From: an uncultured bacterium
GTDB taxonomy: Bacteria > Patescibacteriota > Patescibacteriia > SG8-24 > DYFX01
DNA length: 64,000 bases
NCBI GenBank assembly: GCA_937900255.1
Contig: CALCDZ010000001.1
Span: 57,988-121,987 of the forward strand
Direction: 5' to 3'
The notes beneath the pieces were generated by a model that saw only the letters and a program-made list of their open reading frames with translations, was not told the DNA's origin and did no database searches. Made by a program: the position numbers and the translations under genes. How positions within the stretch are numbered: the stretch's first letter is position 1; every line of letters begins with the position of its first letter. Below, in pieces: positions 28,026 through 43,219 of this stretch.

Positions 28026-28113
28026 TGGCGGAGGGGAGGAGATTCGAACTCCTGATACCTTGCGGTATACTCGCTTTCCAAGCGAGCGCACTCGACCACT
28101 ATGCGACCCCTCC
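28026..28113 (-). tRNA. tRNA-Ser (anticodon GGA), CCA encoded
   Basis: Minus-strand sequence GGAGGGGTCGCATAGTGGTCGAGTGCGCTCGCTTGGAAAGCGAGTATACCGCAAGGTATCAGGAGTTCGAATCTCCTCCCCTCCGCCA. It has a 7-bp acceptor stem, anticodon loop TTGGAAA, a long variable arm and a T-loop TTCGAAT. Confidence 0.85.
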
Positions 28114-28220: not shown

Positions 28221-30065
28221 ATGACGCCTGCCGAAGAAGTAAAACAGAAGCTGGACCTGACGGAGGTGATCGGTGAGTACGTCCGGCTGCAGCCGGCCGG
28301 CGGCCAATCGCTCCGGGGCCTTTGCCCATTCCATGGCGAGAAGACGCCGAGTTTCTACGCGCATCGCGACAAGCAGTTCTGGCATTGTTTCGGCTGCGGC
28401 GAGGGCGGCGACGTCTATACCTTCTATCAGAAGATCGAAGGCGTGGATTTCCGCGACGCCCTCAAGGAACTGGCCGCCCGTGCAGGCGTGGCGCTGCCGG
28501 AATACGACCCGAAGGCCGACTCCGAGCGGTCGGCCGTGCTGGCCGTCTTGGAAGACGCGGCGAAGTATTATGAGGCCGCGTTGAAGCACGAGACGGTCGG
28601 CGCGCGCGGGCGGTCGTATCTGTCCAAACGGAAACTGAACGCGGCGACCATCGCCGAGTTCCGGCTCGGCTACGCGCCGGCGGCATGGGACGCCCTCGTC
28701 AAGGGCCTGCTCGGCAAAGGGCACATGATCGAGAAGATCGTCGCGGCCGGTCTTGCCATCCCGAGCGACCGCCAACGCAGCCACTACGACCGCTTCCGCG
28801 ACCGCGTCATGGTGCCGCTCATGGATCACAAGGGGACGGTCGTCGGTTTCACCGGCCGCATCCTGCCCGACAGTCCCGAAGCGGACAAGGCGGGCAAATA
28901 CATCAACACGCCAGAAACCGCCGTCTATCGGAAGCGCGAATTGGTCTTCGGGTTTCCGCAGGCCAAGCCGCATATCCGCGCCGCGAACTTCGCCGTCCTG
29001 GTGGAAGGCAACCTGGACGTGATTTCCTCGCACCAGGCGGGAGTCAAGAACGTGGTGGCGATCTCCGGCACCGCGCTCACCGGCGGCCAGCTCAAGCAGC
29101 TCTTCGGGAGCCGCGGCGAGGATGGCGGGCATTTCAAGATCGGCTTGGCTTTCGACAACGACGAGGCGGGACGCAAGACCATGAAGAGCAATCTTCCTGC
29201 CGTGCACGAGGCGCTTCGTGCCGCCTGGGGCAATCACGTCCAGGTCTATGGCTACCTCCTGCCGGACGGCTATAAGGATCCGGACGATCTCATCCAGAAG
29301 GACCCTGAGCTTTGGAAGGCTTTGCTGCGGGAAGCCAAGGATTGGGCCGAGATCTCGTTTTCCTTGGCGATGAAGGACTACGTCCCGCGCGACCCGTACT
29401 CGGCCGGTCGCGTCATCGCGAAGTTCAAGCCGGTGCTCGCGATCTTGCGCGAACAGGATCCGGTCATCTTCGATTTCTGGACGCACCGGTTGGGACAGGC
29501 CCTTGGCGTGACGGATGAGGCGCTCCGGAGGGAAATCGGCCAGGCCTCGGTCCTCGAAGGGCGTTCGCTCGCCATCCCGCAGAATGCCGCCGTGCCGAGG
29601 ATCGAAACGCGCGAGGGGCGGCTGGCCGAACGCCTCTTATGCCTGATGTTGCAGGAGGAGGGGTTCTTCGCCAAGCACATCGGTGCCCTGGATGGCCGTT
29701 TTCCGGAAGGCCCTCTGCGGACTCTAGCGGAAAAAATGAGGGCGTATTATACTGATTTCGGCAAAGCCCCCATCCTTCAAGACGCTTTCATCGCCTGGTA
29801 CTTCGATGCCAGGCTGGCCGATCCGGCACTGCCGGCCCTCGAACCGATCCTGCTTCTCAAGGATCGCGACATGGCCGGATGGACCCCGGAACAACTGGCC
29901 GAAGAAGCGGACGTCTGCGCGCGGGAACTCGAAAAAACCGCGGTCAAGAAGACGGAAAAGGAGCTCGTGGGCGCCCTCGCCGAGGCGGAACAGCGCGGTG
30001 ATCGCGCAGCGGCAACCCAAATCGCCAAACGCCTCGAGGCACTCGCCAAACGCCTGCACAATTGA
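28221..30065 (+). CDS. dnaG: DNA primase
   Basis: Zinc-binding [11 protein letters not shown]...[19 protein letters not shown], about 614 aa. The ORF-track start at 28101 is an upstream extension that overlaps the tRNA. Confidence 0.9.
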
Positions 30066-30094
30066 GACGAGGAGCGTTATTTTTTACGTTACGT

Positions 30095-31348
30095 ATGGCG
30101 AAAGCATCACCGAAAAAGAAGACGTCCAAAAAACCCGTCGTCAAGAAAAAGGCCCCCGTGGCCAAGAAAAAGCCCGCTCCGAAGGAAAAAGCTCCCAAGA
30201 AAGGTCCGGAACCGAAGACGAAGCGCTTGAAAGTCGAACCGCCGGCCATCGAGGCCGTCGACAACCTCTTCAAGAAAGGGTTGGCGCGCGGGTTCGTCAC
30301 CGAGATGGAAATCCTGTCGGTCTTCAACGAGGTGGAGGAATACCTGCCCGTCTATGACGAGTTCCTGAACCGCCTCGACAAAGGCGGCATCCAGATCATC
30401 GAGATGAAGGAAGGCCTGCTCGGGAAGAGCTCCGAGCGCGAAGGCGCCATGGCGATGATCCGCGTCGTCAACAAGGAGAAGGATCTCAAGAGGGACGCCA
30501 AGAAGTCGCCGCTCGACATGGAGATCTCGACCGACTCCATCCAGATGTACCTGCGCGAGATCGGCAAGATCCCGCTCCTCACCGGCGCCGAGGAAGTCGA
30601 GCTCGCCAAGCGCAAGGAGCGCAACGACCGCGAGGCCGAACGCCGCCTGATCGAAGCCAACCTGCGCCTGGTCGTCTCGATCGCCAAGAAGTTCGTGGGC
30701 AAGTCGCTTTCGCTGCTCGACCTGATCCAGGAAGGCAACATCGGCCTCTTCCGCGCGGTCAAGAAGTTCGAATACCGCAAGGGCTACAAGTTCTCGACCT
30801 ACGCCACCTGGTGGATCCGCCAGGCCATCACGCGCGCCTTGGCCGACCAGTCGCGCACCATCCGCATCCCGGTGCACATGGTCGAGACCATCAACCGCTT
30901 CCAGCAGATCGAGCGCCAGCTCATCCAGGACCTCGGCCGCGAGCCGCTGCCGGAAGAGATCGCCGCCGAGATGGGCGAGTCGGTCGAGAAGGTCCGCCAC
31001 ATCATCCAGATCTCGCAGGACACGGTCTCGCTCGAAGCCTCCGTCGGTGAAGACGACGAGGACTCCACGCTCGAGGACTTCATCGAGGACGTGAAGAACG
31101 TCTCTCCCGACCGCGCCGCCGCGCTGCAGCTGCTGCGCGATTACGTCGGAGAGATCACCAAGGACCTCTCGCCCCGCGAGCAGAAGATCCTGGAGATGCG
31201 CTTCGGCCTGACCGACGGCGTCGCCCATACGCTGGAAGAGGTCGGCAAGGAGTTCGACGTCACCCGCGAACGCATCCGCCAGATCGAAGCCAAGGCATTG
31301 GAAAAGATCCAGGCGCACTCGGGCATCGCCCGCCTGCGCGACTATTAG
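30095..31348 (+). CDS. rpoD: RNA polymerase sigma-70 factor RpoD
   Basis: Lys-rich N-terminus. Regions 2-4 ([24 protein letters not shown], and the region 4 HTH). Conserved dnaG-rpoD order. Confidence 0.9.
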
Positions 31349-31400: not shown

Positions 31401-33173
31401 TCAATCCTGATAGCCGGCGGGGCGTTCGCCGTCCTGGAGCGGCGAGCCGATCCGATAATCGGCGAAGAGGCTGACGTCGACGTCACGTACGCGCGTGTTC
31501 CAGGCGGTGCCGTAGAGCGCCTTGGCTTGCGCTTCGGTCTGGACCCAGCGGAGCAGGCCATCGGGCTCGACCGCGTAGGTCTTCGGATCGCTCTGGATCT
31601 TGATCAGGTAGGCGCCTTCGCGCAACCGGACGTTGCCACCGATCACGAGGCCGCTCAGCTGGTCGGCGGGCACGGTGACGACCTTGGAGAAGTCCTGCCC
31701 GAACCAGGACCGATAGCTGGTCTCGTTCGGGAAGACGTAGCGTTTCCCGTTCTTGTACCAGTAGACGGCTGGGGAGGCAGAGGCCTTGATGAGGTCTCCG
31801 TCCTTCAAAGGAAGGAAACCGACGCCCTGCGGCGCCGAAGCCTGGGCGGTGATAGGAGCCGACTCGATTGAGAGGGCATCCTTGACTCCGTCGGAAACGG
31901 CGAAGCGGCAGGTGACGGGAGTCGCGGTCAGGCCTTCTGCCAGCGTCGCCAGGCGCGCCGGTCGGTCGCCGACCACCGTGACGGTGGAGGGCCTGCCTCC
32001 GCAAGAGGCGGTGACGGAGGTCGGCGCCCGGTCGAGTTCAACGGAAACCTGCGCGGCGGAGTCCGTGAGGCGGGCGACGTCGGGTCCAGAGACGACCCTC
32101 GGGGCCGCGGTAGCCGGCGTCGAGATCATCACCGGGCTGACGACCGAAACGTTCATCACTGCGCCGGCGGCGTTCAGCGCTTCGGCCTTGAGCGTGAGCG
32201 CGCCGTTCACGGCGGGCGGATACCAGACGTAGGCGCCGTCGGTCACCGGCCGTTCGACGATGGGGCGATAGCTGCCGCTGCCGTCCGTCGAGTAACTGAG
32301 CCGTACCTTCACGACGCCCGCTTCGTTGGCGTACCAAGCCAGCGGGCTCGGCGCCCCGGCTTGGAAGGACGGAAGGCCATGGGGCGACGTCAAGGCGAAG
32401 ACGGTATCCTTGGAAGGCGTGGGGTCGTTCGAAGTGCCGGTCCGGAAACTGAAAGGATTCGGATAGCTGCCGAGCGCGACGGAGTTCCCGGCCGCGTCCT
32501 TCGCGTCGATCCCGAAAGTTTCGGCCGCTCCGCGCGCGTACGGCGCATGCGAGATCGTCAGTACGTTTCCGGAGAAGGCGTAGCCCCACCCATCAGGATT
32601 CTTTTCGGAGAAGGGGACGACGCTGCCTGACAAGACCGGCTCGCTGAAGGTGAGGACGAGGTCAGCGTCACGCGAAGCGTCGATCGTCCCGGCGGCTGGG
32701 TTGGAGGAAAGCAGCACCGGCGGAGCCTGGTCGATTTCCGTGTCGGAAGCGCCGGTGTCTCCGATGGCGATCGCCGAAAGTTCGGTCGTGCCGTCGCTCA
32801 CGCCCGCGTTCGCGCCCTGTGGCGCATAGGTGACTTCAAAACCCTGGGCAGAAGTCGTGACCGGCAAGCGCGCGTCGGACTCATCCAACGCGATTTCCAG
32901 CGACGCCGGGTCGCCCGAAACGGCCACGAAGGCGGAGCGGACGGCCAACGCCTGCCCTTGATAGCTCACGCCGATCCCTTTCGTGCCGCGAACGCGCCAA
33001 TCCGTCTTAGCGGGGTTGGCGAAGGCGATGACGGCATGGTCGATCCGTCCGTCGTGATTGAGGTCCCGGAGGGCGATGGACGTGACGTTCCCCGCCGCCG
33101 GGGCGGCAAGGGCCGGCAGGGCGGTCACCGCAAGCAAGGCGGCGAAAGAGCCCAAAAGAAGTTTGTTGCGCAT
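31401..33173 (-). CDS. secreted surface protein with Ig-like regions and a C-terminal ~100-aa domain shared with two other proteins in the window
   Basis: Start at MRNKLLLGSFAALLAVTALPALAA (signal peptide); the ORF-track start at 33329 is an extension. The C-terminus (AVYWYKNGKRYVFPNETSYRSWF...KIQSDPKTYAV...LRWV) matches domains in 54059-56668 and 49982-51391. Confidence 0.65.
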   Translation of the reverse strand: MRNKLLLGSFAALLAVTALPALAAPAAGNVTSIALRDLNHDGRIDHAVIAFANPAKTDWRVRGTKGIGVSYQGQALAVRSAFVAVSGDPASLEIALDESDARLPVTTSAQGFEVTYAPQGANAGVSDGTTELSAIAIGDTGASDTEIDQAPPVLLSSNPAAGTIDASRDADLVLTFSEPVLSGSVVPFSEKNPDGWGYAFSGNVLTISHAPYARGAAETFGIDAKDAAGNSVALGSYPNPFSFRTGTSNDPTPSKDTVFALTSPHGLPSFQAGAPSPLAWYANEAGVVKVRLSYSTDGSGSYRPIVERPVTDGAYVWYPPAVNGALTLKAEALNAAGAVMNVSVVSPVMISTPATAAPRVVSGPDVARLTDSAAQVSVELDRAPTSVTASCGGRPSTVTVVGDRPARLATLAEGLTATPVTCRFAVSDGVKDALSIESAPITAQASAPQGVGFLPLKDGDLIKASASPAVYWYKNGKRYVFPNETSYRSWFGQDFSKVVTVPADQLSGLVIGGNVRLREGAYLIKIQSDPKTYAVEPDGLLRWVQTEAQAKALYGTAWNTRVRDVDVSLFADYRIGSPLQDGERPAGYQD

Positions 33174-33262
33174 ATGCCCATATCTTAGCAGTTTTTCCGA
33201 GACATGGCACATCCACGTTTGAAACGCTGTCCCGACCTTTAAATATGAGGTGCACAGGGGCC

Positions 33263-33291
33263 TTGATGCGCTCGGGCCCCTCGTGTATAGT
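33263..33291 (+). promoter_or_regulatory. sigma-70-like promoter for tRNA-Asn (TTGATG-N17-TATAGT)
   Basis: TTGATG at 33263-33268, a 17-nt spacer, TATAGT at 33286-33291, about 38 nt upstream of the tRNA 5' end. Confidence 0.5.
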
Positions 33292-33329
33292 GTGCCTGGT
33301 ACCGACCGCCCATCCGGGGCGTGAGCCAT

Positions 33330-33404
33330 TCCGAGGTAGCTCAGCGGTAGAGCAGTGGACTGTTAATCCATTGGTCCTGGGTTCGAATCCCAGCCTCGGA
33401 GCCA
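33330..33404 (+). tRNA. tRNA-Asn (anticodon GTT), CCA encoded
   Basis: TCCGAGGTAGCTCAGCGGTAGAGCAGTGGACTGTTAATCCATTGGTCCTGGGTTCGAATCCCAGCCTCGGAGCCA. Acceptor TCCGAGG/CCTCGGA, anticodon loop CTGTTAA, T-loop TTCGAAT. Confidence 0.85.
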
Positions 33405-33441
33405 TGAGCAGGCGTGTGGGGCGACCCACGTGCTTGGTCAA
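33394..33441 (+). repeat. 48-bp direct repeat copy 1 (tRNA-Asn 3' end plus 37 nt downstream)
   Basis: cctcggagccatgagcaggcgtgtggggcgacccacgtgcttggtcaa. Copy 2 at 35157-35204 is identical except for one mismatch. Confidence 0.75.
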
Positions 33442-33443
33442 AA

Positions 33444-33478
33444 GCCAGCCAAAAAATTGGCTGGCTTTTGTGTTTTTT
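33444..33478 (+). terminator. rho-independent terminator after tRNA-Asn
   Basis: GCCAGCCAA-aaaa-TTGGCTGGC hairpin followed by TTTTGTGTTTTTT. Confidence 0.6.
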
Positions 33479-33708
33479 AGGTCGTTCGGATTAGCGACCT
33501 GAACCAGTGTGATTTCGCATTGGAAACGCACCCACGTGGGAATCAAGAACTTTAACCTTATTTCCTGGTTCGAATCCCACGTGTTTTCACGCGCCGTCAC
33601 TGCATGACCTCGGGCGCATTGGTTGACCCAATGCATCAGAAAAGCTACTCTTAAAGGAGGATTTCCAACGTAATTCGATATAGCACCTATTTTGCAAATG
33701 ATAATGTT

Positions 33709-34305
33709 ATGAAGCGAGCATATATTTTGCTGCTTGTCGTTACGTATAGCCTTGGACTGATCGGGGTGACATCCTGGTTTTGGTTGCGGCAAAATCGGAA
33801 TAATCAAACCGGATCTTCCTGCTTCGACTCCGCGATTTTTTGCAGGCCCGCGGAATACATGGCGGAGGACGGCATCGTTTATGCTCATCTGCGTCGGGGC
33901 GAAGAGGAGGCAATGATTGAACGTATCCGCGAGTATTACACTGCAGACTATCGCAAGACGCTACCTAAGAAGTTCGAAGCGGAATTGACCTCTGCCGATA
34001 CTCCTCAGGAAAAGCAAAAGTACGCAGACGCCCTTGCGTCCCTGAAAAAGTGGATTGACGTGGATACGTCCTTTAGCGCGCCTCGTACTTATAAGGACTT
34101 GGACGGCGTCGTGGCTGTGGTCACGGGCGCCTCGGCATTCGTACCGGGCGTAGGATACGTTGAGTCGAGAGCTAACGTTTTTTTCTTCCGCCGCGATGAT
34201 ACGTCGTACCGGCTCGCGGCTGTCACGCCCGTCGGGGAAGATGCAAGGACGTATGAATCGGCGCCGGTCGACATGTTCAAGAGGGGTGTGGGGGCTATAG
34301 AATAG
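33709..34305 (+). CDS. hypothetical membrane-anchored protein (island cargo)
   Basis: 198 aa with an N-terminal TM helix. It sits in an AT-richer segment and is convergent with the CHAP-like gene. Confidence 0.5.
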   Translation: MKRAYILLLVVTYSLGLIGVTSWFWLRQNRNNQTGSSCFDSAIFCRPAEYMAEDGIVYAHLRRGEEEAMIERIREYYTADYRKTLPKKFEAELTSADTPQEKQKYADALASLKKWIDVDTSFSAPRTYKDLDGVVAVVTGASAFVPGVGYVESRANVFFFRRDDTSYRLAAVTPVGEDARTYESAPVDMFKRGVGAIE

Positions 34306-34360
34306 CTTACCGAACAAAAAAGAGGCATTCTGACAGTGGATGCCTCTGATGATCTCGATC

Positions 34361-35041
34361 CTAGTACGTGTACGTGGCCTTGAGCCTGAATCCCTGGAAG
34401 ATGACGTTGGGGAAATAGTTCTGCCGTACCTGCCTGAGTGACATGTCGCCACAACGATTCGTCGTGTGCGCGGCGAGCCAGACGTCGTCCCCGTTTTGTC
34501 CCGTCACGAAGTAGGCGTGATCCCAGCTGCCGTCTCCGGTCCAGTCCGCTAGGATCACATCCCCGGCATAGAAGCGCGGAATGGTCGAGAGGCTCTGTGG
34601 AATGGACACGGCGCCATATGTCCTTCCGGAGTTAAGCATGAAGGTGCGGAACTCGCTGACACCGGCCCAGGAGTTGCTTCGGTTGTGATCACCGGCGCTG
34701 AGGTAGTACCAGGCATCGCTACACCACCAACACGTTCCGCCGACCGGCTGCCAACCGCCGAATGCGAGTGCTTGAGACACGAAGTTGGTGCAGTCGCTTG
34801 AGTATGCCTCGTAAGCCTTGTTGTACCCAGTGGTGAGTGACGTGTTGGTTATTCCGCAGTAGTGCAGCGCGTACGTGACTGCGGAACTCGCGGAATAGGT
34901 GCCGGTCGTGACCGACTGCACCACGGACCCCGTGTCGCTGCCGTCGCTGTCTCCGGACGTCGAGGCGTCCATGTCGGCAACGCACGACATCGATACCGAT
35001 CCAATGAGCGCGAAGACCAAAAGAGCTGTTCCTAGTCGCAT
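34361..35041 (-). CDS. secreted CHAP/NlpC-P60-like cysteine amidase (putative peptidoglycan hydrolase)
   Basis: Signal peptide MRLGTALLVFALIGSVSMSC. Cys motif SDCTNFVSQALAFGGW and downstream His GSWDHAYFV give the papain-fold Cys/His arrangement. RBS GGAAGAGGA before ATG 35041; an alternative start is at 35059. Confidence 0.55.
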   Translation of the reverse strand: MRLGTALLVFALIGSVSMSCVADMDASTSGDSDGSDTGSVVQSVTTGTYSASSAVTYALHYCGITNTSLTTGYNKAYEAYSSDCTNFVSQALAFGGWQPVGGTCWWCSDAWYYLSAGDHNRSNSWAGVSEFRTFMLNSGRTYGAVSIPQSLSTIPRFYAGDVILADWTGDGSWDHAYFVTGQNGDDVWLAAHTTNRCGDMSLRQVRQNYFPNVIFQGFRLKATYTY

Positions 35042-35156
35042 CTGTCCTCTTCCTTTCATGCAATGCCATCGACACTATGTCGATGCGGGAGGAGACTAGC
35101 ACGCGGTTGGCGTTGGCGTCAACCGTGCCTAGGGACTCCAGTGGGAATCGCTACCT

Positions 35157-35204
35157 GGGAGCCATGAGCAGGCGTGTGGGGCGACCCACGTGCTTGGTCA
35201 ATAG
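35157..35204 (+). repeat. 48-bp direct repeat copy 2 (att-like duplicate of the tRNA-Asn 3' end)
   Basis: cctgggagccatgagcaggcgtgtggggcgacccacgtgcttggtcaa, preceded by a degenerate T-arm-like gggaatcgctacc. Confidence 0.75.
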
Positions 35205-35250
35205 ATCATCAAATCATTGGTGGGCTGTTGACTGATAGCAACACGAGTCT

Positions 35251-35847
35251 ATGTGGTTCCACAAGGAGGAAAACCAAATAGATAAAATGTCAAAAGTTTT
35301 TATTGACGAATTTCCTTCTTGGGCGATTAAGCACTCGGCCAAATTGATTTCGGAACTTAAGGAATCACGAAACGAGTATGAGAAGAGTTGGGCCAATCTT
35401 CTCAAGGAACAAAATGCACTTGGAGATACTCTAATTGATTATTTTACGGCCGCGCACGCCATCTACATCAATTCACTGCCTGATGCTTATATTCAATTAT
35501 TGGGAGGTGGCAAAAAAATTGCATCAGCGCTCTCCCTGTGGCCAAGTCGATCCCAAAACTTTTTCCTAATAGCATCGAAGTTCCATCAAAAAGTTTCGTC
35601 TGATGTAGGTCGCGGCGGCAAGAGTTCACTGGTTGAATCATTTGAAAAAGTGTTTTCAAGCGGTGGAAATCTTGAACCCTTGGCTGTGCACATCAGCACT
35701 GCAATTGCGCATTCAATTTCCCAAGAAATGGGCGTGGACACAGATGACCCATTTTCAGCTGCAGGCCTATACTCAACTCTTTTTCGATTATCGCAGGAGC
35801 AACTGGAGTGGGTTTCCAGCCACATTATCAAGCGGGATGCCCGTTGA
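35251..35847 (+). CDS. hypothetical all-alpha protein, low-GC orphan gene
   Basis: 198 aa with markedly AT-rich coding sequence. Lies between the tRNA-end repeat (35157-35204) and the R-M flanking repeat (35935). No family recognised. Confidence 0.5.
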   Translation: MWFHKEENQIDKMSKVFIDEFPSWAIKHSAKLISELKESRNEYEKSWANLLKEQNALGDTLIDYFTAAHAIYINSLPDAYIQLLGGGKKIASALSLWPSRSQNFFLIASKFHQKVSSDVGRGGKSSLVESFEKVFSSGGNLEPLAVHISTAIAHSISQEMGVDTDDPFSAAGLYSTLFRLSQEQLEWVSSHIIKRDAR

Positions 35848-35934
35848 GACCCAAGTACGGCAGTGGCCCACAAATTGACCCCTTCAAAAGCCCTAAGGTG
35901 CCCACAGGAATTGGGCACCAGACCCACCAGCGGA

Positions 35935-36040
35935 GCCAGCAAGACCCATCACGCAAGTGGCGGGTCTTTGCTTTCCGTAAGTCGATTTCCCTTTGGGGGT
36001 GTCGTCTGCTAAAATTGGTCAACATCAGCCAAGGCCGCCT
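35935..36040 (+). repeat. ~105-bp imperfect direct repeat, copy A (immediately upstream of hsdM)
   Basis: gccagcaagacccatcacgcaagtggcgggtctttgctttccgtaagtcgatttccctttgggggtgtcgtctgctaaaattggtcaacatcagccaagg... is about 90% identical to copy B. Confidence 0.75.
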
Positions 36041-36070
36041 CTTTTTTGCTGAAATCAGCGACATACCGCT

Positions 36071-37522
36071 ATGTTCGAGCAAGCCTTCAAGAACATCGAC
36101 GACATCCTCCGCACGGATTCCGGTTCGGCTACGGAGCTGGACTACGTGGAGCAGACTTCCTGGATCATTTTCCTGAAGTACCTGCATGACCTGGAGCTCG
36201 AGAACGCGAAGAAGGCGGAGCTCTCCGGCAAGAAGCACGAGCATACCTTTGAACCGAAGTTCCGCTGGGATACCTGGGCCTGCCCACGGACACCCGACGG
36301 CAAGATCGACCACCATAAAGCGCTCGACGGTAAGGACCTCAAGGAGTTCGTCGACGAAAAGCTTTTCCCGTACCTCAAGAAGTTCAAGAGCGCAGATCCG
36401 GACACCGTCGAATACAAAGTCGGTGAGATCTTCAGCGAACTCAAGAATAAAATCACGAGCGGCTACAAGCTCCGCGAGATTTTGAACATCGTCTGCGATT
36501 TGCACTTCCAGCGTAGCGAGGAGAAGCATGAGCTCTCGCATCTGTACGAGGCCCGAATCGCCAAGATGGGCAACGCGGGACGGAACGGCGGCGAGTACTA
36601 CACGCCTCGCCCCCTCATCCGCACCATCGTGCAAGTGGTCAGGCCTGAAATCGGCGACAAGATCTACGACGGCGCCTGCGGCTCAGCCGGCTTCCTGGTC
36701 GAGGCCTTCAAGTACCTGACGGAAAACAGCGCCAAGCTCTCCACGGCCGAAATGCGCACGCTCCAGACCAAGACCTTCTACGGCAAGGAGATCAAGTCCT
36801 TGGCCTACATCATCGGCGTGATGAACATGATCCTGCACGGGGTCGAGGCGCCGCACATCCGGCACATGGACACGCTGTCCCAGAACGTCAACGACATCCA
36901 GGAGAAGGACCGCTTCGAGGTCATCCTGGCCAACCCGCCGTTCGGCGCCGGTATCGGCAAGGAAGTCCAGCAGAACTTCCCGATCAAGACCGGCGAGACG
37001 GCCTACCTGTTCCTCCAGCACTTCATCAAGAGCCTCAAGGCCGGCGGCCGGGCGGGCATCGTCATCAAGAACACCTTCCTTTCCAACACCGATGACGCCT
37101 CCGTGCGCCTGCGCAGGCACTTGCTTGAGAGCTGCAATCTCCACACCGTGCTGGACTTGCCGGGCGGCGTCTTTTCAGGCGCTGGGGTGAAAACTGTGGT
37201 GCTGTTCTTCGAGAAAGGCGCGCCCACCAAGAAGGTCTGGTACTACCAGCTCAAGCTCGACCGCAATCTCGGCAAGACCAACCCGATCAACGAGAAGGAT
37301 CTGGCGGACTTCGTGAAGCTCCAGAAGACCAAGGCCGATTCCTCCAACGCCTGGTCGGTCAAGGTTTCGGATCTCGATCAGGAAACGCTTGATTTGTCGG
37401 TGAAGAACCCTAAGGGCACCGAGACTGTCGCGCACCGCAGCCCCAAGGACATTCTCAAGGAGATGGTGAAATTGGATGCAGAGAGCGCGAAAGCGTTGGC
37501 TGGTATCAAGGGGTTGCTATGA
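36071..37522 (+). CDS. hsdM: type I restriction-modification system methyltransferase subunit
   Basis: MFEQAFKNIDDILRTDSG... N-terminus. N6-adenine MTase motif NPPFG. AdoMet motif DGACGSAGFL. Confidence 0.9.
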   Translation: MFEQAFKNIDDILRTDSGSATELDYVEQTSWIIFLKYLHDLELENAKKAELSGKKHEHTFEPKFRWDTWACPRTPDGKIDHHKALDGKDLKEFVDEKLFPYLKKFKSADPDTVEYKVGEIFSELKNKITSGYKLREILNIVCDLHFQRSEEKHELSHLYEARIAKMGNAGRNGGEYYTPRPLIRTIVQVVRPEIGDKIYDGACGSAGFLVEAFKYLTENSAKLSTAEMRTLQTKTFYGKEIKSLAYIIGVMNMILHGVEAPHIRHMDTLSQNVNDIQEKDRFEVILANPPFGAGIGKEVQQNFPIKTGETAYLFLQHFIKSLKAGGRAGIVIKNTFLSNTDDASVRLRRHLLESCNLHTVLDLPGGVFSGAGVKTVVLFFEKGAPTKKVWYYQLKLDRNLGKTNPINEKDLADFVKLQKTKADSSNAWSVKVSDLDQETLDLSVKNPKGTETVAHRSPKDILKEMVKLDAESAKALAGIKGLL

Positions 37523-38679
37523 GTGGTGAGTGGCCCACGAGAAAATTGGGCGCTGTTTTGCAGATAATCAATGGTTACGCGTTTGATTCCAAACATTTTG
37601 ATGCCACAAATGGAATGCCGCTGATTAGGATCCGTGATTTAAAATCTGGTACTCACACGGAAACGCGATTTGCAGGGGCATACGACAAAAAATATATAGT
37701 TAAAGCAGGAGATTTGCTCATTGGAATGGATGGTGAGTTTGGTTGCTACGAATGGGGTGGTGAACCCGGCTTATTAAATCAGCGAGTATGCAAGTTACAG
37801 TCGTTTGCAACATCGCTAGCGCCGCGCTTCTTATTTTACGGAGTTAACAGTTACCTTAAGGACATTGAGAATGAGACTGGATATACCACAGTAAAGCACC
37901 TGTCTTCAAAACAAATCCTCGACATCGAATTTCCAATTCCGCCGCTACCGGAGCAACGGCGGCTCATTAAGTTACTCGACCAAGCTTTTTTGGATATCGC
38001 CATCGCCAAGGCGAATGCCGAAAGGAACTTGCAAAATGCGCGCGATCTTTTTGAGAGCCGTCTCAATGAGATTTTTACCAAGCGGGGACTGGGGTGGGTG
38101 GAAAAACGGCTCGATCAGATTGGAACAACACAAACCGGTTCGACTCCGTCGACTTCCGATAAAGAAAACTACGGCAACTTCATTCCTTTTATAAAGCCGG
38201 CAGACTTTAATGAAGATGGCTCATTGAACTATGGCAATGCTGGTCTTACCGAAAAGGGATTATTGAAAGCGCGCAAAGTGCGAGCTGGATCAGTCCTAAT
38301 GGTGTGCATCGGTGCGACTATCGGGAAATGTGGTTATTGTGATCGTGATGTAACCACAAATCAGCAAGTTAACTCACTCACCCCATTCAAAGGTACTTTC
38401 TACAAGCTTGTTTATTATCAGATGCGTACCAGAGACTTTCAAAGACGCATGCTTTTGAGTTCTGCTCAGGCCACGTTGCCGATAATAAACAAGTCTAAGT
38501 GGGAGGCTTTAACAATTTTGCTGCCACAAAAGACGGGAGAACAATCACGTATCGTTATGGAGCTGGCCGGCTTGGACAAAGAAGCAGCCCGCCTCAAGTC
38601 CACCTATCAGAAAAAGCTCCACGCATTGGAAGCGCTAAAGAAATCCTTGCTCAACAAGGCTTTTCGTGGTGAGCTGTAG
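37519..38679 (+). CDS. hsdS: type I restriction-modification system specificity subunit
   Basis: 386 aa with two target-recognition-domain halves separated by conserved helical repeats. ATGA overlap with hsdM. AT-rich relative to hsdM and hsdR. Confidence 0.85.
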   Translation: MSGEWPTRKLGAVLQIINGYAFDSKHFDATNGMPLIRIRDLKSGTHTETRFAGAYDKKYIVKAGDLLIGMDGEFGCYEWGGEPGLLNQRVCKLQSFATSLAPRFLFYGVNSYLKDIENETGYTTVKHLSSKQILDIEFPIPPLPEQRRLIKLLDQAFLDIAIAKANAERNLQNARDLFESRLNEIFTKRGLGWVEKRLDQIGTTQTGSTPSTSDKENYGNFIPFIKPADFNEDGSLNYGNAGLTEKGLLKARKVRAGSVLMVCIGATIGKCGYCDRDVTTNQQVNSLTPFKGTFYKLVYYQMRTRDFQRRMLLSSAQATLPIINKSKWEALTILLPQKTGEQSRIVMELAGLDKEAARLKSTYQKKLHALEALKKSLLNKAFRGEL

Positions 38680-38685
38680 GCGCAT

Positions 38686-40989
38686 ATGAACGAAGCCGAA
38701 ACGCGCGCGGAATACGTCGACCCCAAGCTTAAGGCGAGCGGGTGGGGCGAAATCGAAGGATCGAAGGTCCTGCGCGAGTTTCGGATCACCGAGGGCAAGA
38801 TCCAGACGGGCGGCACGCGCGGGAAGCCGGAGATCGCCGATTATGTGCTGGTCTACAAGAACCGCAAGCTCGCCGTCGTCGAAGCTAAACCGGAAGGGAT
38901 GGAGGCGACGGAGGGCGCAGTCCAGGCCAAGGCCTATGCGGCGAAGCTCGGTTTGGAATACACCTACGCCACCAATGGTCGGGACATCTACGAGGTGTCG
39001 ATGAAGACCGGGCACGAAGGTGCCGTGGGCAGCTTCCCGACGCCTGACGAACTCTGGGCCCGCACCTTCGCCGAGCAGAACGCCTGGCGCGAGAAGTTCG
39101 CCGCCGTCCCGACGGAGGGCGAAAAGGGCCGCCGGTATTATCAGGAGCTGGCCATTGACAACGCGCTCGAGGCCGTGGCCGAGGGCAAGAAGCGGATCCT
39201 GGTGACCATGGCCACCGGTACCGGCAAGACGGCCGTGGCGGCGCAGTTCTCCTGGAAGCTGTTCCAGTCGCGTTGGAACCTCCGGGGCGACGGCGCGCGC
39301 CGGCCGAGGATCCTGTTCCTGGCCGACCGCAACATCCTCGCGGACCAGGCCTTCACGAACGACTTCGCGATCTTCGAGCGCGACGCCCGGGTGCGCATCA
39401 ACCCGCTCGACATCCGCAAGAAGGGCGGCGTGCCGACCGGCGGCAGCGTCTTCTTCACCATCTTCCAGACGTTCATGAGCGGGCCGGGCGATACGCCGTA
39501 CTTCGGCGAGTACCCGCCGGATTTCTTCGACCTCGTCATCATCGACGAGTGCCATCGCGGCGGCGCCAACGACGAGGGCAACTGGCGCGGCATCTTGGAA
39601 TACTTCGCCCCGGCCGTGCAGCTCGGTCTGACGGCGACGCCGAAGCGCAAGGACAACGTGGATACTTATAGATATTTCGGCGAGCCGGTCTACACGTATT
39701 CCCTCAAACAAGGCATCAATGACGGCTTCCTGACGCCGTTCAAGGTCAAGCGCATTCAGACGACGCTGGACGAGTACGTCTACACCTCGGACGACCAGGT
39801 CATCGAGGGCGAAGTCGAGGAGGGCAAGATCTACGAGGAAGTTGACTTCAACAGGATCATCTTCATCAAGGAACGCGAAGCCAAGCGCGTGCGCATCGTG
39901 CTGGACGAGATCGACCAGGACGAGAAGACGATCGTCTTCTGCGCGACCCAGGACCACGCCTTGGCCGTCCGCGACCTGATCAACCAATACAAGGACAGCC
40001 GAGACCCGAATTACTGCGTCCGCGTGACCGCCAACGACGGCGCGCGCGGCGAGCAGTTCCTGCGGGAGTTCCAGGACAACGAGAAGACCATCCCGACCGT
40101 CCTGACCACTTCGCAGAAGCTCTCGACGGGCGTGGACGCCCGCAACGTCCGCAACATCGTGCTGATGCGGCCGGTCAACTCCATGATCGAGTTCAAGCAG
40201 ATCATCGGGCGCGGCACGCGGCTTTTCGACGGCAAGGAGTATTTCACCATCTACGACTTCGTCGACGCCTATCACCACTTTTCGGACCCGGAGTGGGACG
40301 GCGAACCGATCGAGGAAACGGAAGAGAAACCCCGCCACTCCAAGGAGTCCCAAGGAGATCCCAAGAAACCGCGCCAGGTGTCCGAACAGCCGGAAGACCA
40401 GCCGGCGAAAAAGCTTCGGATCAAGTTGCGTGACGGCAAGGAACGCGAGATCCAGCACATGATCTCGACCTCGTTCTGGAGCGCCGACGGCAAACCGCTT
40501 TCGATCCAGGAGTTCATGGACAACCTGTTCGGGGCGATGCCTGAGTTCTTCAGAGACGAGGAGGAGCTCCGCAAGATCTGGTCCGACCCGCGCACGCGCC
40601 AGGCCTTCCTCGATAAGATCGCAGAACTCGGCTACGGCAAGGATGCGCTGGAGACGCTCCAGAAGATGATCGACGCTGAGGACAGTGACCTGTTCGACGT
40701 GCTTTCGTATGTCTCGTTCCTGACGCCGCCGATCACGCGCGAGGAGCGCGTCAGCCACGCGAAGGATCGCATCTACCAAGGCCTCGGCGAACTCCAGCAG
40801 GATTTCCTCGGGTTCGTCCTCGGGAAGTACGAGGAGAGCGGGGTCGACGAGCTCGGCGAGCACCAACTGCCGATCCTGCTGAACCTGAAATACCAGGCCA
40901 TCGCTGACGCCGAGCAGGCGCTCGGGAATGTCGGCACAATCCGCACGCTCTTCCTGGATCTGCAGAGGAAGCTGTATGCTAAGATGTGA
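38686..40989 (+). CDS. hsdR: type I restriction enzyme R subunit (shorter than usual at 767 aa)
   Basis: N-terminal MNEAETRAEYVDPKLKASGW, helicase motifs ATGTGKT and DECHRG, then a C-terminal helical region. Confidence 0.85.
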   Translation: MNEAETRAEYVDPKLKASGWGEIEGSKVLREFRITEGKIQTGGTRGKPEIADYVLVYKNRKLAVVEAKPEGMEATEGAVQAKAYAAKLGLEYTYATNGRDIYEVSMKTGHEGAVGSFPTPDELWARTFAEQNAWREKFAAVPTEGEKGRRYYQELAIDNALEAVAEGKKRILVTMATGTGKTAVAAQFSWKLFQSRWNLRGDGARRPRILFLADRNILADQAFTNDFAIFERDARVRINPLDIRKKGGVPTGGSVFFTIFQTFMSGPGDTPYFGEYPPDFFDLVIIDECHRGGANDEGNWRGILEYFAPAVQLGLTATPKRKDNVDTYRYFGEPVYTYSLKQGINDGFLTPFKVKRIQTTLDEYVYTSDDQVIEGEVEEGKIYEEVDFNRIIFIKEREAKRVRIVLDEIDQDEKTIVFCATQDHALAVRDLINQYKDSRDPNYCVRVTANDGARGEQFLREFQDNEKTIPTVLTTSQKLSTGVDARNVRNIVLMRPVNSMIEFKQIIGRGTRLFDGKEYFTIYDFVDAYHHFSDPEWDGEPIEETEEKPRHSKESQGDPKKPRQVSEQPEDQPAKKLRIKLRDGKEREIQHMISTSFWSADGKPLSIQEFMDNLFGAMPEFFRDEEELRKIWSDPRTRQAFLDKIAELGYGKDALETLQKMIDAEDSDLFDVLSYVSFLTPPITREERVSHAKDRIYQGLGELQQDFLGFVLGKYEESGVDELGEHQLPILLNLKYQAIADAEQALGNVGTIRTLFLDLQRKLYAKM

Positions 40990-41120
40990 CGACGTGGGTA
41001 CGATCGTCGATTGCTGATTCGCCGGAATCAATAAACCGAATCCGCCCCTGTGAGGCGGGGGAGATGGACGTACTCGGCCTGTCTCCGTATCGAGGTTTCA
41101 ACGTCCTCCACGACGTGGAA

Positions 41121-41226
41121 GCCAGCAAGACACATCACGCAAGTGGTGTGTTTTGCTTTCCATAAGTCGATTTCCCTTTGGGGGTGTCGTCTGCTAAAAT
41201 TAGTCGACATCAGCCAAGACGCATTT
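41121..41226 (+). repeat. ~105-bp imperfect direct repeat, copy B (immediately downstream of hsdR)
   Basis: gccagcaagacacatcacgcaagtggtgtgttttgctttccataagtcgatttccctttgggggtgtcgtctgctaaaattagtcgacatcagccaagac... Confidence 0.75.
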
Positions 41227-41240
41227 TTTCCAAGTCCTAG

Positions 41241-41705
41241 GTGAAGGTTCATGGTCAACCTTATGAAACGGTGCCGTATATTCACATGACCAAAAGCCCC
41301 CTCAAAAATATACCTGCCGATTTTCGTAAAGCACTTGCGGCTGCGCCCAAAGCCAGGGAGCAATGGGAATCGTTGACGGCGATCGCGCGGAGGGATTTCA
41401 TCAGTTGGATCGCATCGGCCAAGCAAGAGAAGACGCATGCGCGTCGGATCGAGGTGGCGTGTTCGAAGCTTGCCGCCGGGCAGCGTCGTCCTTGCTGCTA
41501 CGCGGTCGTGCCGATGGATCTTTATAAGGCGCTTGCCACGGCGCCGAAGGCCAGGACGCAGTGGAGCGGCCTCACGCCGGATGAGCGCCGGGATCTTGTC
41601 GGTTGGATCGGGATATCCGGGAAACCGGGGGCGAGGGTGGGCCGAATCGCCGAAGCTTGCGCGATGCTCGCAGCCAGGAAAAGACGTTTTAAACCAGCGA
41701 AATAG
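41241..41705 (+). CDS. YdeI/OmpD-associated-family-like protein with an internal duplication
   Basis: Two ~55-aa repeats (ALAAAPKAREQWESLTAIARRDFISWIASAK / ALATAPKARTQWSGLTPDERRDLVGWIGISGK). GTG start at 41241; an alternative ATG is at 41286. Confidence 0.5.
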   Translation: MKVHGQPYETVPYIHMTKSPLKNIPADFRKALAAAPKAREQWESLTAIARRDFISWIASAKQEKTHARRIEVACSKLAAGQRRPCCYAVVPMDLYKALATAPKARTQWSGLTPDERRDLVGWIGISGKPGARVGRIAEACAMLAARKRRFKPAK

Positions 41706-41779
41706 CTTGCGAACGTTCCCGCCACACGGCATGGCACCGAACGTTTGATATTTCGGCCTCTTTCGGGCAAAATAGGGCC

Positions 41780-43219
41780 ATGTCGAACGGCGTGGCCAAG
41801 AACATCTTTCACCTGCTGACCTCCTCGGTCCTCCAAAAGGGCATCGCTTTCGTGTACTTCGCGCTCATCGCCCGTTGGGCCGGCGTCGCGCATACGGGGG
41901 CGTATTTCTTCGCCCTCTCCTGGACGTTGATGTTCACGACGATCACCGACATGGGCCTCACGCCCGTCCTGATCCGCGAATCGGCCAAAGACCACGCCAA
42001 TACCGAGAAGTTCCTGAACCAGACGCTTTCGCTCAAGCTTCCGCTCACGGCCGTGGCGGTACTCTCCGCCATCGTCGGCGCCTGGCTGTTCCATATCGAA
42101 CCGGTCACGCGTACGCTCGTCATGCTCTCCACCATCGTCATTTCGCTGGATGCCGTCTCCCTTACATTCTACGGCGTCCTGCGCGGGCACCATGTCCTGA
42201 AGCACGAAGGCCTCGGGCTGGTCATCGGCCAGTCCGTCACCATGCTCATCGGCCTCGCATCCTTGAAGCTCCACATGCCGCTCTGGGTGCTGGTCGTCGC
42301 GCTCATCGCCGGCAGTTCCTGGAACGCGCTGGCGTCCTGGTGGGTCGTGACCCGCAAGCTCCGTATCCGCGTCCGTCCGAGCTGGGACCGGAACTTCGCC
42401 CTGACGATCCTGCGTACCGCCTTCCCGTTCGCGCTCGCGGGCTTTTTCGTGAAGATCTACACCAGCGCCGACGCCGTGCTGCTCACGCACTTCCATGGAG
42501 AGGCGGCGGCCGGCCTTTACAGCGTCCCGTATAAGCTGACCTTCGCCTTCCAGTTCGTGCCAATGACGTTCACGGCGGCGTTCTACCCGGCCATGAGCCG
42601 CGCCTTCGCGACGGACAAGAAGGCGCTCGGCGATCTCCTGTACCAGGCGCTGCGGTCGCTGACGCTGATCGTCGCCCCGATCGTCTCCGGCATCGCCGCC
42701 CTGGCGCCGCAATTGGTGCAATCCGTTTTCGGCAAGGAGTACCTGCCGTCCGTCCTTGCGGTCGAGACGCTTATTTTCGTACTCGTCCCGATCTTCCTGG
42801 ATTTCCCGATCGGCTCGCTCCTGAACGCCTCCGACCGCCAGATGACGCAGACGAAACTGATGGCGGCTGCGACCGCCGTCTCGCTCGCGCTCAACCTCGC
42901 CCTCATCCGGGATTACGGCTTGGTCGGGGTCGTCGTCGCATCGATCGTCAGCCACATGGTCCTGATCGTCGGCGGCCTCATCGTCATCGGGAAGTTCCTG
43001 GAATGGCCGGCGGCCCGGTTCGCCGGGGCTGCCGTCCGCACGGGTCTGGCGGCCGGCGCGATGGCGCTCGTCGTGACGTTCACGAAGTCGCTCCTGCCTC
43101 TTCCGGCCGTGGTGTTCCTCGGTGCGCTCAGTTACCCGGCCGCTGCCTTCGCGTTCGGCGCGATCGGCGTGAAGGATCTCAAGATGCTGGCCGCGGGGGT
43201 GCTGAAGCCAAGCGCATGA
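41780..43219 (+). CDS. polysaccharide/oligosaccharide flippase (Wzx / MOP superfamily)
   Basis: 479 aa with about 12-14 TM helices. The N-terminus has the typical polysaccharide-biosynthesis-protein layout. Confidence 0.75.
   Translation: MSNGVAKNIFHLLTSSVLQKGIAFVYFALIARWAGVAHTGAYFFALSWTLMFTTITDMGLTPVLIRESAKDHANTEKFLNQTLSLKLPLTAVAVLSAIVGAWLFHIEPVTRTLVMLSTIVISLDAVSLTFYGVLRGHHVLKHEGLGLVIGQSVTMLIGLASLKLHMPLWVLVVALIAGSSWNALASWWVVTRKLRIRVRPSWDRNFALTILRTAFPFALAGFFVKIYTSADAVLLTHFHGEAAAGLYSVPYKLTFAFQFVPMTFTAAFYPAMSRAFATDKKALGDLLYQALRSLTLIVAPIVSGIAALAPQLVQSVFGKEYLPSVLAVETLIFVLVPIFLDFPIGSLLNASDRQMTQTKLMAAATAVSLALNLALIRDYGLVGVVVASIVSHMVLIVGGLIVIGKFLEWPAARFAGAAVRTGLAAGAMALVVTFTKSLLPLPAVVFLGALSYPAAAFAFGAIGVKDLKMLAAGVLKPSA

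Follow-up and report, generated by a model that had tools for sequence, protein, structure and literature searches.

A Type I restriction-modification operon in a 63%-GC Patescibacteria (CPR) bacterium, placed in its phylum through RpoD, carries an AT-rich specificity gene, hsdS, between GC-rich hsdM and hsdR genes. This raises the question of whether hsdS was swapped in by horizontal exchange or whether such a contrast is a usual state of this gene. We analysed a stretch of 64 kb that contains the operon, referred to here as the window. All three genes lie on the plus strand. hsdM (36071-37522) encodes a Type I N6-adenine methyltransferase subunit of 483 aa with N6_Mtase (PF02384, 2e-62) and HsdM_N (PF12161, 2.3e-08) domains and the catalytic motif NPPF at aa 288. 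hsdS (37519-38679) encodes a specificity subunit of 386 aa with two stretches of Methylase_S (PF01420, 2.8e-37) and matches to the S-subunit structures 1YF2, 5YBB, 3OKG and 7BST in the PDB. hsdR (38686-40989) encodes a restriction/translocase subunit of 767 aa with the Pfam domains ResIII, Helicase_C, HSDR_N and EcoEI_R_C (PF08463, 3.8e-25, aa 608-764), the PD-(D/E)xK nuclease motif D52...EAK and the SF2 helicase/translocase motifs GTGKT, DECH, TAT and QIIGR. hsdM and hsdS overlap by 4 nt (ATGA), a spacer of 6 nt separates hsdS and hsdR, and all three ORFs are intact. The three products carry the sequence features of Type I HsdM, HsdS and HsdR, and, as judged from its sequence, the operon encodes an intact Type I restriction-modification system whose HsdR is EcoEI/EcoAI-like.

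As is established for Type I systems, two target-recognition domains (TRDs) of HsdS recognise the two half-sites of the target, while two conserved helical regions dock the subunit to HsdM. Since a single S subunit guides methylation (M2S) and cutting (R2M2S) alike, a swap of S alters specificity safely. Neither a second hsdS-like ORF nor inverted repeats for phase-variable shuffling were found in the 64-kb window.

The compositional contrast is pronounced. hsdS has a GC content of 0.457 (0.50, 0.40 and 0.48 at the first, second and third codon positions), compared to 0.580 for hsdM, 0.620 for hsdR and 0.622 for the window overall. Its GC content at third codon positions (GC3) of 0.48 stands against 0.85 in hsdM and 0.87 in hsdR and lies about 8.6 sd below that of 29 host genes analysed in the correct frame (mean 0.791, sd 0.036, range 0.73-0.87). 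Among all 1161-nt sliding segments of the 64 kb, the one with the lowest GC (0.457) starts at 37501 and coincides with hsdS. Segments outside positions 33000-41800 have a mean of 0.632 (sd 0.015) and a minimum of 0.573, which leaves hsdS about 11 sd lower and outside the range of low-GC host genes. Scored with host usage, the synonymous-codon log-likelihood of hsdS gives z = -5.9. Amino-acid content was ruled out as the source of the low GC, as host codon usage predicts a GC3 of 0.79 for hsdS. A two-change-point likelihood fit to third codon positions (2ΔlnL = 234) places the switches in GC3 at 37471 (support 37453-37542) and 38673 (38670-38718), both within about 50 nt of the hsdS ends. The original prediction that an AT-rich hsdS sits next to hsdM and hsdR genes of host-like GC is hence confirmed, with GC3 of the latter two equal to or slightly above that of the host, and hsdS is compositionally foreign.

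Comparison with homologues points to different affinities of the three subunits. With locus GC controlled, both HsdM (over aa 1-443) and HsdR are more similar to homologues from CPR, the phylum of the host, than to others, with effects of +0.039 (p = 2e-7) and +0.054 (p = 2e-4), respectively; identities to CPR versus non-CPR homologues are 0.741 vs 0.694 for HsdM and 0.722 vs 0.656 for HsdR, which is CPR-type starting at its first residues. For the conserved regions of HsdS, the order of raw identities is reversed (0.47 vs 0.52, p = 5e-4), and the CPR effect after control for locus GC is -0.021 (p = 0.12), about 4 standard errors apart from the effects for the HsdM body and HsdR. The expectation that HsdS would not track HsdM was thus borne out in part, in that M and R are CPR-like and the S conserved regions are not; the GC-controlled effect for S itself is not significant. 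The nearest full-length HsdS proteins (62-69% identity) are encoded in non-CPR operons, and the HsdM proteins beside them share 65-72% identity with the HsdM of the window, compared to 75-78% for CPR homologues. The named top matches of HsdS are all non-CPR and those of HsdM mostly CPR. Furthermore, the 4-nt overlap of hsdM and hsdS is a non-CPR architecture, present in 78% of non-CPR loci versus 2 of 20 CPR loci; in the other 18 CPR loci, hsdM and hsdS are 0.75-2.7 kb apart.

This incongruence between M/R and S could partly be due to compositional convergence. With locus GC controlled, the similarity of the HsdS conserved regions and of the HsdM tail is to homologues of GC-rich hosts generally, not to non-CPR homologues specifically. 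The tail comprises the last ~40 aa of HsdM, and we considered it as a recombination tract (raw identities 0.47 vs 0.55, p = 2e-5); this signal is lost among low-GC loci and mostly reflects host GC, and the candidate was rejected as weak. Taken together, these comparisons of sequence make a separate history for hsdS likely, if not proven.

The reading that we favour, with a probability of roughly 0.6, is that hsdS was replaced by recombination, that turnover throughout the family keeps hsdS AT-rich, and that the operon is a cassette. hsdS would then be a separately evolving module of the operon. Recombination with a compact operon of non-CPR type would have replaced the sequence that begins at the very 3' end of hsdM and runs through the hsdS stop codon, whereas hsdM and hsdR would have stayed CPR-type. 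AT-richness is the normal state of hsdS across the family: these genes would be replaced and transferred horizontally more rapidly than hsdM and hsdR and, for this reason, never fully take on the base composition of their host. The locus in the window would show the gap most strongly because its host is very GC-rich. No relative with the same M and R and a different S was found among 5.8 billion proteins (best HsdM match 77%) or 185,579 species genomes (76%). We therefore infer the recombination event, with its direction and timing, which was neither directly observed nor can be dated. Synonymous sites are saturated between hsdS and the nearest hsdS (69% identity), so that the data neither point to a particular donor nor indicate a recent event. 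A plasmid-borne donor was also considered and rejected, the best plasmid HsdS match being only 32% identical.

The operon would itself have been inserted at a hot spot for insertions, anchored by a tRNA-Asn(GTT) gene (33330-33404, plus strand, detected with ARAGORN). The last 20 nt of this gene and 38 nt of its flank are repeated at 35145-35201 (plus strand, repeat family D1, 44-nt perfect core), and this second copy delimits a cassette A with orf33709 and an Amidase_6 gene. The hsd cassette is directly preceded by a cassette B, which holds an AT-rich orphan ORF of 198 aa (35251-35847, plus strand, GC3 0.42, codon-usage z = -6.7) with no match in Pfam or NCBIfam. The hsd cassette is flanked by two copies of a direct repeat of ~100 nt (families D2/D3) with 89-96% identity at 35934-36033 and 41120-41218, both on the plus strand. 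Between the copies lie hsdM, hsdS and hsdR only, and no integrase or transposase was found inside the hsd cassette. A 39-nt core of the repeat is confined to these two sites in the window, where chance would give 0 occurrences. The upstream copy is preceded by the tRNA-Asn 3'-end-like motif GGAGCCA, and the downstream copy contains a terminator-like hairpin (41136-41150). The first 41 nt of the downstream copy match the sequence directly after tRNA-Asn in the relative L089 at 95%, where they are present once and the remaining ~60 nt of the repeat are absent. Downstream of the second copy lies an OmdA/YdeI-family gene (41241-41705, plus strand; PF13376 in two stretches, 2.1e-33), which probably adjoined the repeat sequence originally; OmdA genes are also present in the variable region of the relatives L086 and L089. 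Relatives with 92-93% RpoD identity have kept the LigA...DnaG-RpoD synteny (L086 and L088 through Big_5) and lack hsd genes there. The whole operon appears to be an inserted cassette and as such accessory DNA in this CPR genome, and the assumption that hsdM and hsdR are the resident machinery of the host did not hold.

The same data bear on the possibility that the operon arrived as a mosaic, to which we assign somewhat less than an even chance. Here, hsdS would have been replaced, if at all, in a previous host, hsdMSR would have been inserted at this site as a complete unit, and a resident M/R pair would never have received a new S. The repeat brackets exactly hsdMSR and is found at no other site in the window, its tRNA-Asn-like start and the position of its first 41 nt in L089 argue for an insertion of the complete unit, and the relatives with conserved synteny are devoid of it. 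Moreover, the GC3 of both hsdM and hsdR exceeds the host mean of 0.79, and two GC-rich contigs with the nearest hsdS relatives (L083 and L084) already show the mosaic composition, with a GC3 of 0.85 in hsdM and of 0.54 and 0.61 in hsdS. On the other hand, the cassette lacks a mobility gene, and an exact empty site was not recovered in the relatives, where L089 offers only a partial one; the interrupted tRNA-Asn of L086 has no match in Rfam.

To place the composition of hsdS in context, we surveyed 55 related operons and expressed the deficit of each hsdS as its GC3 below the expectation from the codon usage of its own hsdM and hsdR. The deficit is positive in 93% of these operons, and hsdS GC3 is lower than hsdM GC3 in 94% of loci. 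In 15 GC-rich loci the mean deficit is 0.18 and the maximum 0.29; the deficit in the window, 0.39, is the most extreme. In low-GC loci (n = 23), hsdS lies below hsdM in 87% with a mean deficit of 0.06. A regression yields hsdS GC3 = 0.65 x hsdM GC3 + 0.05 (r = 0.92, n = 54), from which the hsdS of the window is off by about 2 residual sd. Slopes decrease from hsdR (0.90) over the conserved regions of hsdS (0.78) to the TRDs (0.60), an order that would be expected if TRDs were exchanged most often. An AT-rich hsdS beside host-like hsdM and hsdR genes is therefore real but ordinary, as most related systems and EcoKI are alike in this respect, and low GC on its own does not show that hsdS was swapped in this genome. 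Since the hsdS genes of L083 and L084 are AT-rich too, the AT-richness of a transferred hsdS could date back to its donor. The proposed horizontal swap of hsdS is accordingly upheld in part: foreign composition and the lack of an HsdM-like CPR affinity speak for it, but the low GC is family-wide and the replacement was not observed. Against the favoured reading, hsdS lies below hsdM even in very AT-rich hosts, which simple mixing from a shared pool would not predict. Full-text literature searches did not turn up any paper stating that hsdS generally exceeds hsdM and hsdR in AT content. For enterobacterial hsd genes, such a difference had reportedly been pointed out in the early 1990s. It has been described that hsd genes deviate in GC from recipient genomes (PMC12255300).

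The survey lends some weight to the idea that hsdS was always part of the operon and that hsdS genes have a low GC3 at equilibrium, without any swap, which we regard as possible but doubtful. Such a bias may arise if selection or GC-biased gene conversion is weaker at their synonymous sites, the latter because divergent TRDs seldom find homologous partners; alternatively, rare codons may throttle the translation of S. The deficit extends to low-GC loci, in which exchange with an average pool should raise hsdS GC, and it recurs in EcoKI. The nearest hsdS genes in GC-rich contigs have kept their low GC3 despite saturated synonymous sites, the conserved regions, as the likely substrates of recombination, have a higher GC than the TRDs, and the incongruence of M/R and S weakens once GC is controlled. 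What argues against it is the clear CPR signal in M and R that is absent from the S conserved regions, the compact M-S architecture that is atypical among CPR loci, and a deficit in the window that surpasses every other locus. Furthermore, in GC-rich bacteria, a low GC3 is usually taken for a mark of recent acquisition and not of weak selection. It may even be speculated, although we consider this unlikely, that AT-richness is an actively maintained and near-universal signature of Type I specificity genes and not just a footprint of transfer. In GC-rich hosts, rare codons could throttle S translation and thereby preserve the M2S/R2M2S stoichiometry; another possible cause is that TRDs, having no homologous partners, escape GC-biased gene conversion. 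If so, the difference in GC3 between hsdM and hsdS would follow host GC as a rule (slope ~0.65) and would not be an acquisition clock.

The extent of the foreign tract can be judged from the composition within hsdS. TRD1 (37519-37938, aa 1-140, GC3 ~0.33-0.50) was delimited by a PLPEQ...helix motif and conservation, and the central conserved region (37939-38088, aa 141-190, GC3 ~0.6) aligns to the central helices of all 55 HsdS proteins of the family. TRD2 (38089-38520, aa 191-334, GC3 ~0.30-0.47) and the C-terminal conserved region with the stop codon (38521-38679, aa 335-386, GC3 ~0.55-0.67) follow, and all four lie on the plus strand. The TRDs have the lowest GC3 (~0.43), and the two conserved regions are intermediate (~0.60). 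TRD1 is 64% identical to that of L082 and 63% to that of Estrella lausannensis (L085), while TRD2 shares 65% with Estrella and 11-23% with all other loci. TRDs are thus reassorted in the family, with L082 having only TRD1 in common with the window and Estrella both TRDs. This reassortment and the lower GC3 of the TRDs would fit an exchange of the two TRDs alone, by recombination within conserved regions that were themselves retained. However, the conserved regions are far below hsdM and hsdR in GC3 and without CPR affinity, the change points coincide with the gene ends and not with the borders between TRDs and conserved regions, and the difference between conserved regions and TRDs is generic in the family (0.66 vs 0.54 in GC-rich loci). 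Such an exchange is thus improbable, and the foreign tract extends over all of hsdS, conserved regions included, and not over the two TRDs alone, as had also been suggested. An assembly chimera, in which the metagenome assembler would have joined reads of two different organisms within the conserved sequence of hsdM and hsdR, can be dismissed, as contigs from two other assemblies, one from ENA (21.6 kb) and one from Logan (1.86 kb), span both junctions and are identical to the window over their full length, the overlap and the spacer are clean with all ORFs intact, and dozens of independent genomes show the same mosaic.

On these results, the recognition sequence of the system in the window is not predictable from relatives of its M and R subunits. 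For genome scans, a low-GC hsdS beside hsdM and hsdR of host-like composition should be regarded as the default of Type I systems; it is not, on its own, a sign of a recent transfer specific to the locus. How quickly specificity genes turn over relative to the enzymes could in turn be studied through the regular scaling of the gap with host GC.

Several aspects of the locus correspond to known systems. EcoKI, the Type IA system of E. coli K-12 (hsdRMS), shows the same contrast, with a GC of 0.404 and GC3 of 0.32 in hsdS compared to 0.548 and 0.66 in hsdM and 0.539 and 0.64 in hsdR. Its absolute gap of 0.33 is slightly smaller than the 0.37 in the window because its host has only ~51% GC. An overlap of hsdM and hsdS is also found in EcoKI, there with translational coupling (PMC3510504). 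However, EcoKI belongs to a different family, has an HsdR of 1170 aa without EcoEI_R_C and the gene order R-M-S. The short HsdR with a ResIII core and EcoEI_R_C and an HsdM of ~480 aa rather resemble the Type IB-like EcoAI and EcoEI and the HsdR of Vibrio vulnificus (PDB 3H1T, match 3e-143), the placement in the classical IB family (EcoAI/EcoEI) being by domain content only.

The cassette resembles restriction-modification units with long target duplications, which combine an insert of restriction-modification genes only, direct repeats of >30 bp (here ~100 nt) and the absence of an integrase or transposase; Type I examples and tRNA-linked cases have also been described (Furuta et al. 2010, PMC2853133). 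It differs from this pattern in that a tRNA 3'-end-like motif stands at the start of the repeat, a sign of site-specific integration (PMC2853133), yet no integrase is present, and in that no clean empty site was recovered.

Conserved M and R subunits combined with a variable S, as in the window, where TRD1 and TRD2 differ in their nearest relatives, are also a feature of systems studied at the level of strains. The Salmonella systems StySB, SP and SQ are examples of allelic hsdS genes or reassorted TRDs that act with conserved hsdM and hsdR genes. Recombining hsdS alleles on conserved hsdM/hsdR have been described in Xylella fastidiosa (bioRxiv 10.1101/2022.09.01.506293) and, as domain movement, in Helicobacter (PMC3077401). 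The conserved regions of hsdS are likely to be the substrates of recombination in the window as well. Unlike these cases, which come from strains of one species, the window has no close relative that carries the system, and its exchange appears to have taken place across phyla and to have involved the whole gene.

The AT-rich ORF (37519-38679, plus strand; 386 aa, Pfam Methylase_S in two stretches) is hsdS, which lies between the other two genes of a compact Type I restriction-modification operon, hsdMSR. It shares 4 nt (ATGA) with the end of hsdM (36071-37522, plus strand; Pfam N6_Mtase and HsdM_N) and is separated by a 6-nt spacer from hsdR (38686-40989, plus strand; Pfam ResIII, Helicase_C and EcoEI_R_C). 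The catalytic motifs are complete in HsdM (NPPF) and HsdR (D..EAK, GTGKT, DECH and QIIGR). HsdR matches a solved HsdR fragment of Vibrio vulnificus (3H1T) at 3e-143, and HsdS matches S subunits of solved structure. The 64-kb window contains one hsdS-like ORF and no inverted repeats hinting at a shufflon. RpoD (30062-31345) has its best named matches in Patescibacteria and Uhrbacteria, which makes the host a CPR bacterium. Its GC content of 62-63%, like the 63% of two relatives (L086 and L089), is high for CPR, most fetched CPR loci having 31-52% GC.

The original prediction that hsdS is AT-rich beside GC-rich neighbours was confirmed far beyond chance: GC and GC3 are 0.457 and 0.48 in hsdS versus 0.580 and 0.85 in hsdM and 0.620 and 0.87 in hsdR, with a GC of 0.622 for the whole window and a mean GC3 of 0.791 (sd 0.036) for 29 host genes. 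The sliding-window minimum of the 64 kb (1161-nt window) starts at 37501, approximately 11 sd under the level outside the island, and the likelihood of hsdS under host codon usage corresponds to z = -5.9. Amino-acid composition was ruled out as the cause, since a GC3 of 0.79 is expected for the same protein under host codon preferences. A two-change-point fit to third positions placed the switches at 37471 (37453-37542) and 38673 (38670-38718), which are the ends of hsdS.

We consider a modular replacement of hsdS the best explanation, with a probability of roughly 60%. The exchanged segment would begin about 16 codons before the end of hsdM and run through the hsdS stop codon; recombination would have brought it in from a compact operon belonging to this family, with M and R keeping their CPR type. 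The best HsdM identity among 5.8 billion proteins is at most 77%, with mostly CPR among the top matches; the HsdM family is strongly conserved across phyla and archaea (65-77% identity in CPR, Proteobacteria, Nitrospira, Planctomycetes and Woesearchaeota). The top HsdS matches, at 69%, 66% and then 62% (Estrella lausannensis, Chlamydiae), are non-CPR in every case with a taxon name. We further compared M, S and R from 80 fetched genome loci that share this hsdM family, the CPR members being L004-L035, L061, L064 and L070. Identities of the window proteins to CPR and non-CPR homologues were 0.741 and 0.694 for HsdM aa 1-443 (bootstrap CI of the difference +0.030 to +0.064), 0.722 and 0.656 for HsdR (+0.052 to +0.081), and 0.472 and 0.519 for the conserved regions of HsdS (-0.087 to -0.006). 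When locus GC was controlled for, the CPR effect persisted for HsdM (+0.039, p = 2e-7) and HsdR (+0.054, p = 2e-4) and became non-significant for the HsdS conserved regions (-0.021, p = 0.12), where host GC was the main predictor; the last 40 residues of HsdM behaved in the same way. From these sequence comparisons it is safe to say that HsdS appears to be without the CPR affinity seen in HsdM and HsdR; to call HsdS demonstrably non-CPR in origin would not be safe. Gene architecture agrees: other genes, spanning 0.75-2.7 kb, separate hsdS from hsdM at 18 of 20 CPR loci, and the 4-nt overlap found in the window occurs in 78% of non-CPR loci. Among individual loci, L084 (a GC-rich JGI contig outside the CPR set) has a KilA-N gene between hsdM and hsdS, and L083 a Fic gene downstream of hsdS.

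That hsdM and hsdR are resident, as originally assumed, did not hold up: the operon is a repeat-bracketed cassette in a mosaic insertion hot spot that extends from tRNA-Asn(GTT) (33330-33404), its anchor, to about 41700 (region 33330-41720). At 35145-35201 the terminal 20 nt of the tRNA recur together with 38 nt of its flank, so that the two copies bracket a 1.8-kb segment (orphan ORF, Amidase_6 gene). A direct repeat of about 100 nt (35934-36033 and 41120-41218; copies 89-96% identical) encloses exactly hsdMSR, its 39-nt core being found at these two sites alone. The tRNA 3'-terminal motif occurs four times (GGAGCCA at 33398, 35158 and 35929; GAAGCCA at 41118), each time with either of two flank types behind it, and stands ahead of both copies of the longer repeat. 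This delimits cassettes A (33405-35144; orphan ORF and Amidase_6), B (35202-35928; an AT-rich orphan ORF) and C (36034-41119; hsdMSR). No integrase or transposase was found in the hsdMSR cassette and no integrase across the hot spot. The first 41 nt of the repeat lie directly 3' of tRNA-Asn in L089 (95% identity). LigA-GatCA-Lgt-DnaG-RpoD synteny is kept in relatives with 92-93% identical RpoD, including Big_5 in L086 and L088; after this block they have other, unrelated genes and no hsd operon. A variant in timing, reasonably possible though less likely than not, is that the operon was already mosaic when it arrived ready-made as a repeat-flanked cassette.

The orphan ORF of cassette B (35251-35847, plus strand; 198 aa), directly upstream of the hsd cassette, is more AT-rich than hsdS (GC 0.437, GC3 0.42, codon-usage z = -6.7) and has no match in Pfam or NCBIfam. 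At 41028-41732 a minus-strand ORF (234 aa, without Pfam match) is the longest; antisense ORFs are common in the GC-rich window sequence, and the plus-strand OmdA/YdeI-family ORF 41241-41705 (PF13376 twice, 2e-33) is almost certainly the real gene there. The tRNA-Asn of the window is uninterrupted. In a related Patescibacteria MAG (L086, 15024-15645; same in L088, GCA_038062835.1), about 545 nt split tRNA-Asn in the anticodon loop and encode an HNH-type endonuclease-like ORF (CxxC...HH...CxxCH); ARAGORN calls no tRNA-Asn there and Rfam gives no match at E<=0.01. This insert could be a CPR tRNA intron carrying a homing endonuclease. The ARAGORN tRNA-Val at 42628-42701, within a Polysacc_synt ORF (41780-43219), is probably a false positive. 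ARAGORN also calls a tRNA-Ser(GGA) on the minus strand (28026-28113). As the longest dnaG ORF (28101) shares its first 13 nt with this tRNA, dnaG probably starts at a point downstream.

The main rival explains the composition of hsdS by an intrinsic equilibrium bias, without any swap. Across 54 related loci, hsdS GC3 equals 0.65 x hsdM GC3 + 0.05 (r = 0.92) and is below hsdM GC3 in 94%; slopes on hsdM are 0.90 for hsdR, 0.78 for the hsdS conserved regions and 0.60 for the TRDs. The deficit (GC3 predicted by the codon usage of M and R at the same locus minus observed GC3) exceeds zero in 93% of 55 loci, with means of 0.18 (maximum 0.29) among 15 GC-rich loci and 0.06 among 23 AT-rich loci, and its presence even in AT-rich hosts speaks for such a bias. 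The window has the largest deficit (0.39), its hsdS lying about 2 residual sd under the regression. Among loci with the closest HsdS, hsdM and hsdS GC3 are 0.85 and 0.54 (L083), 0.85 and 0.61 (L084), and 0.47 and 0.34 (Estrella, L085). EcoKI, the archetypal system of E. coli K-12, belongs to another Type I family and resembles the window (hsdS GC3 0.32 versus hsdM 0.66 and hsdR 0.64). Low GC alone can therefore neither date nor locate a transfer, and an hsdS coming from a GC-rich donor could already have been AT-rich. Synonymous sites have reached saturation between the window hsdS and its closest relatives (identity of 0.28-0.36 at conserved four-fold codons). Composition by itself thus does not argue for the predicted horizontal swap; the support comes from HsdS not sharing the CPR affinity of M and R, and from gene architecture. 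A bias without replacement appears less likely, although the two are not exclusive: AT-richness is the usual condition of hsdS, and under the replacement reading hsdS would be less fitted to host base composition because it is exchanged faster than M and R.

TRDs are clearly reassorted within the family: TRD1 is 64% identical to TRD1 of a Nitricoxidireducens locus whose TRD2 is unrelated, and Estrella HsdS has both TRDs in common with the window (63% and 65%). GC3 is lowest in the TRDs (~0.43) and between in the central and C-terminal conserved regions (~0.60); an exchange of the TRDs only is improbable. Since the window contains two other public assemblies as exact substrings across both junctions, an assembly chimera can practically be dismissed.

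That hsdS alleles recombine while hsdM and hsdR stay conserved is textbook biology. Such recombination has been documented within species (bioRxiv 10.1101/2022.09.01.506293; PMC3077401), and horizontal hsd transfer with GC deviation has been reported at large scale (PMC12255300). Our literature searches found no explicit statement of a family-wide rule that hsdS GC3 is below that of hsdM and hsdR; the pattern is visible already in EcoKI and would hardly surprise specialists. The repeats reach 38-95 nt past the tRNA end and in this resemble classical att sites less than they do long target duplications, and the cassette matches the published class of restriction-modification units inserted with long target duplications (PMC2853133). 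The tRNA-end motif of the repeat here, and a search of relatives that recovered no clean empty site, make that mechanism a candidate one. New here is the hsdS allele in an uncultured CPR bacterium; the kind of system is already known.
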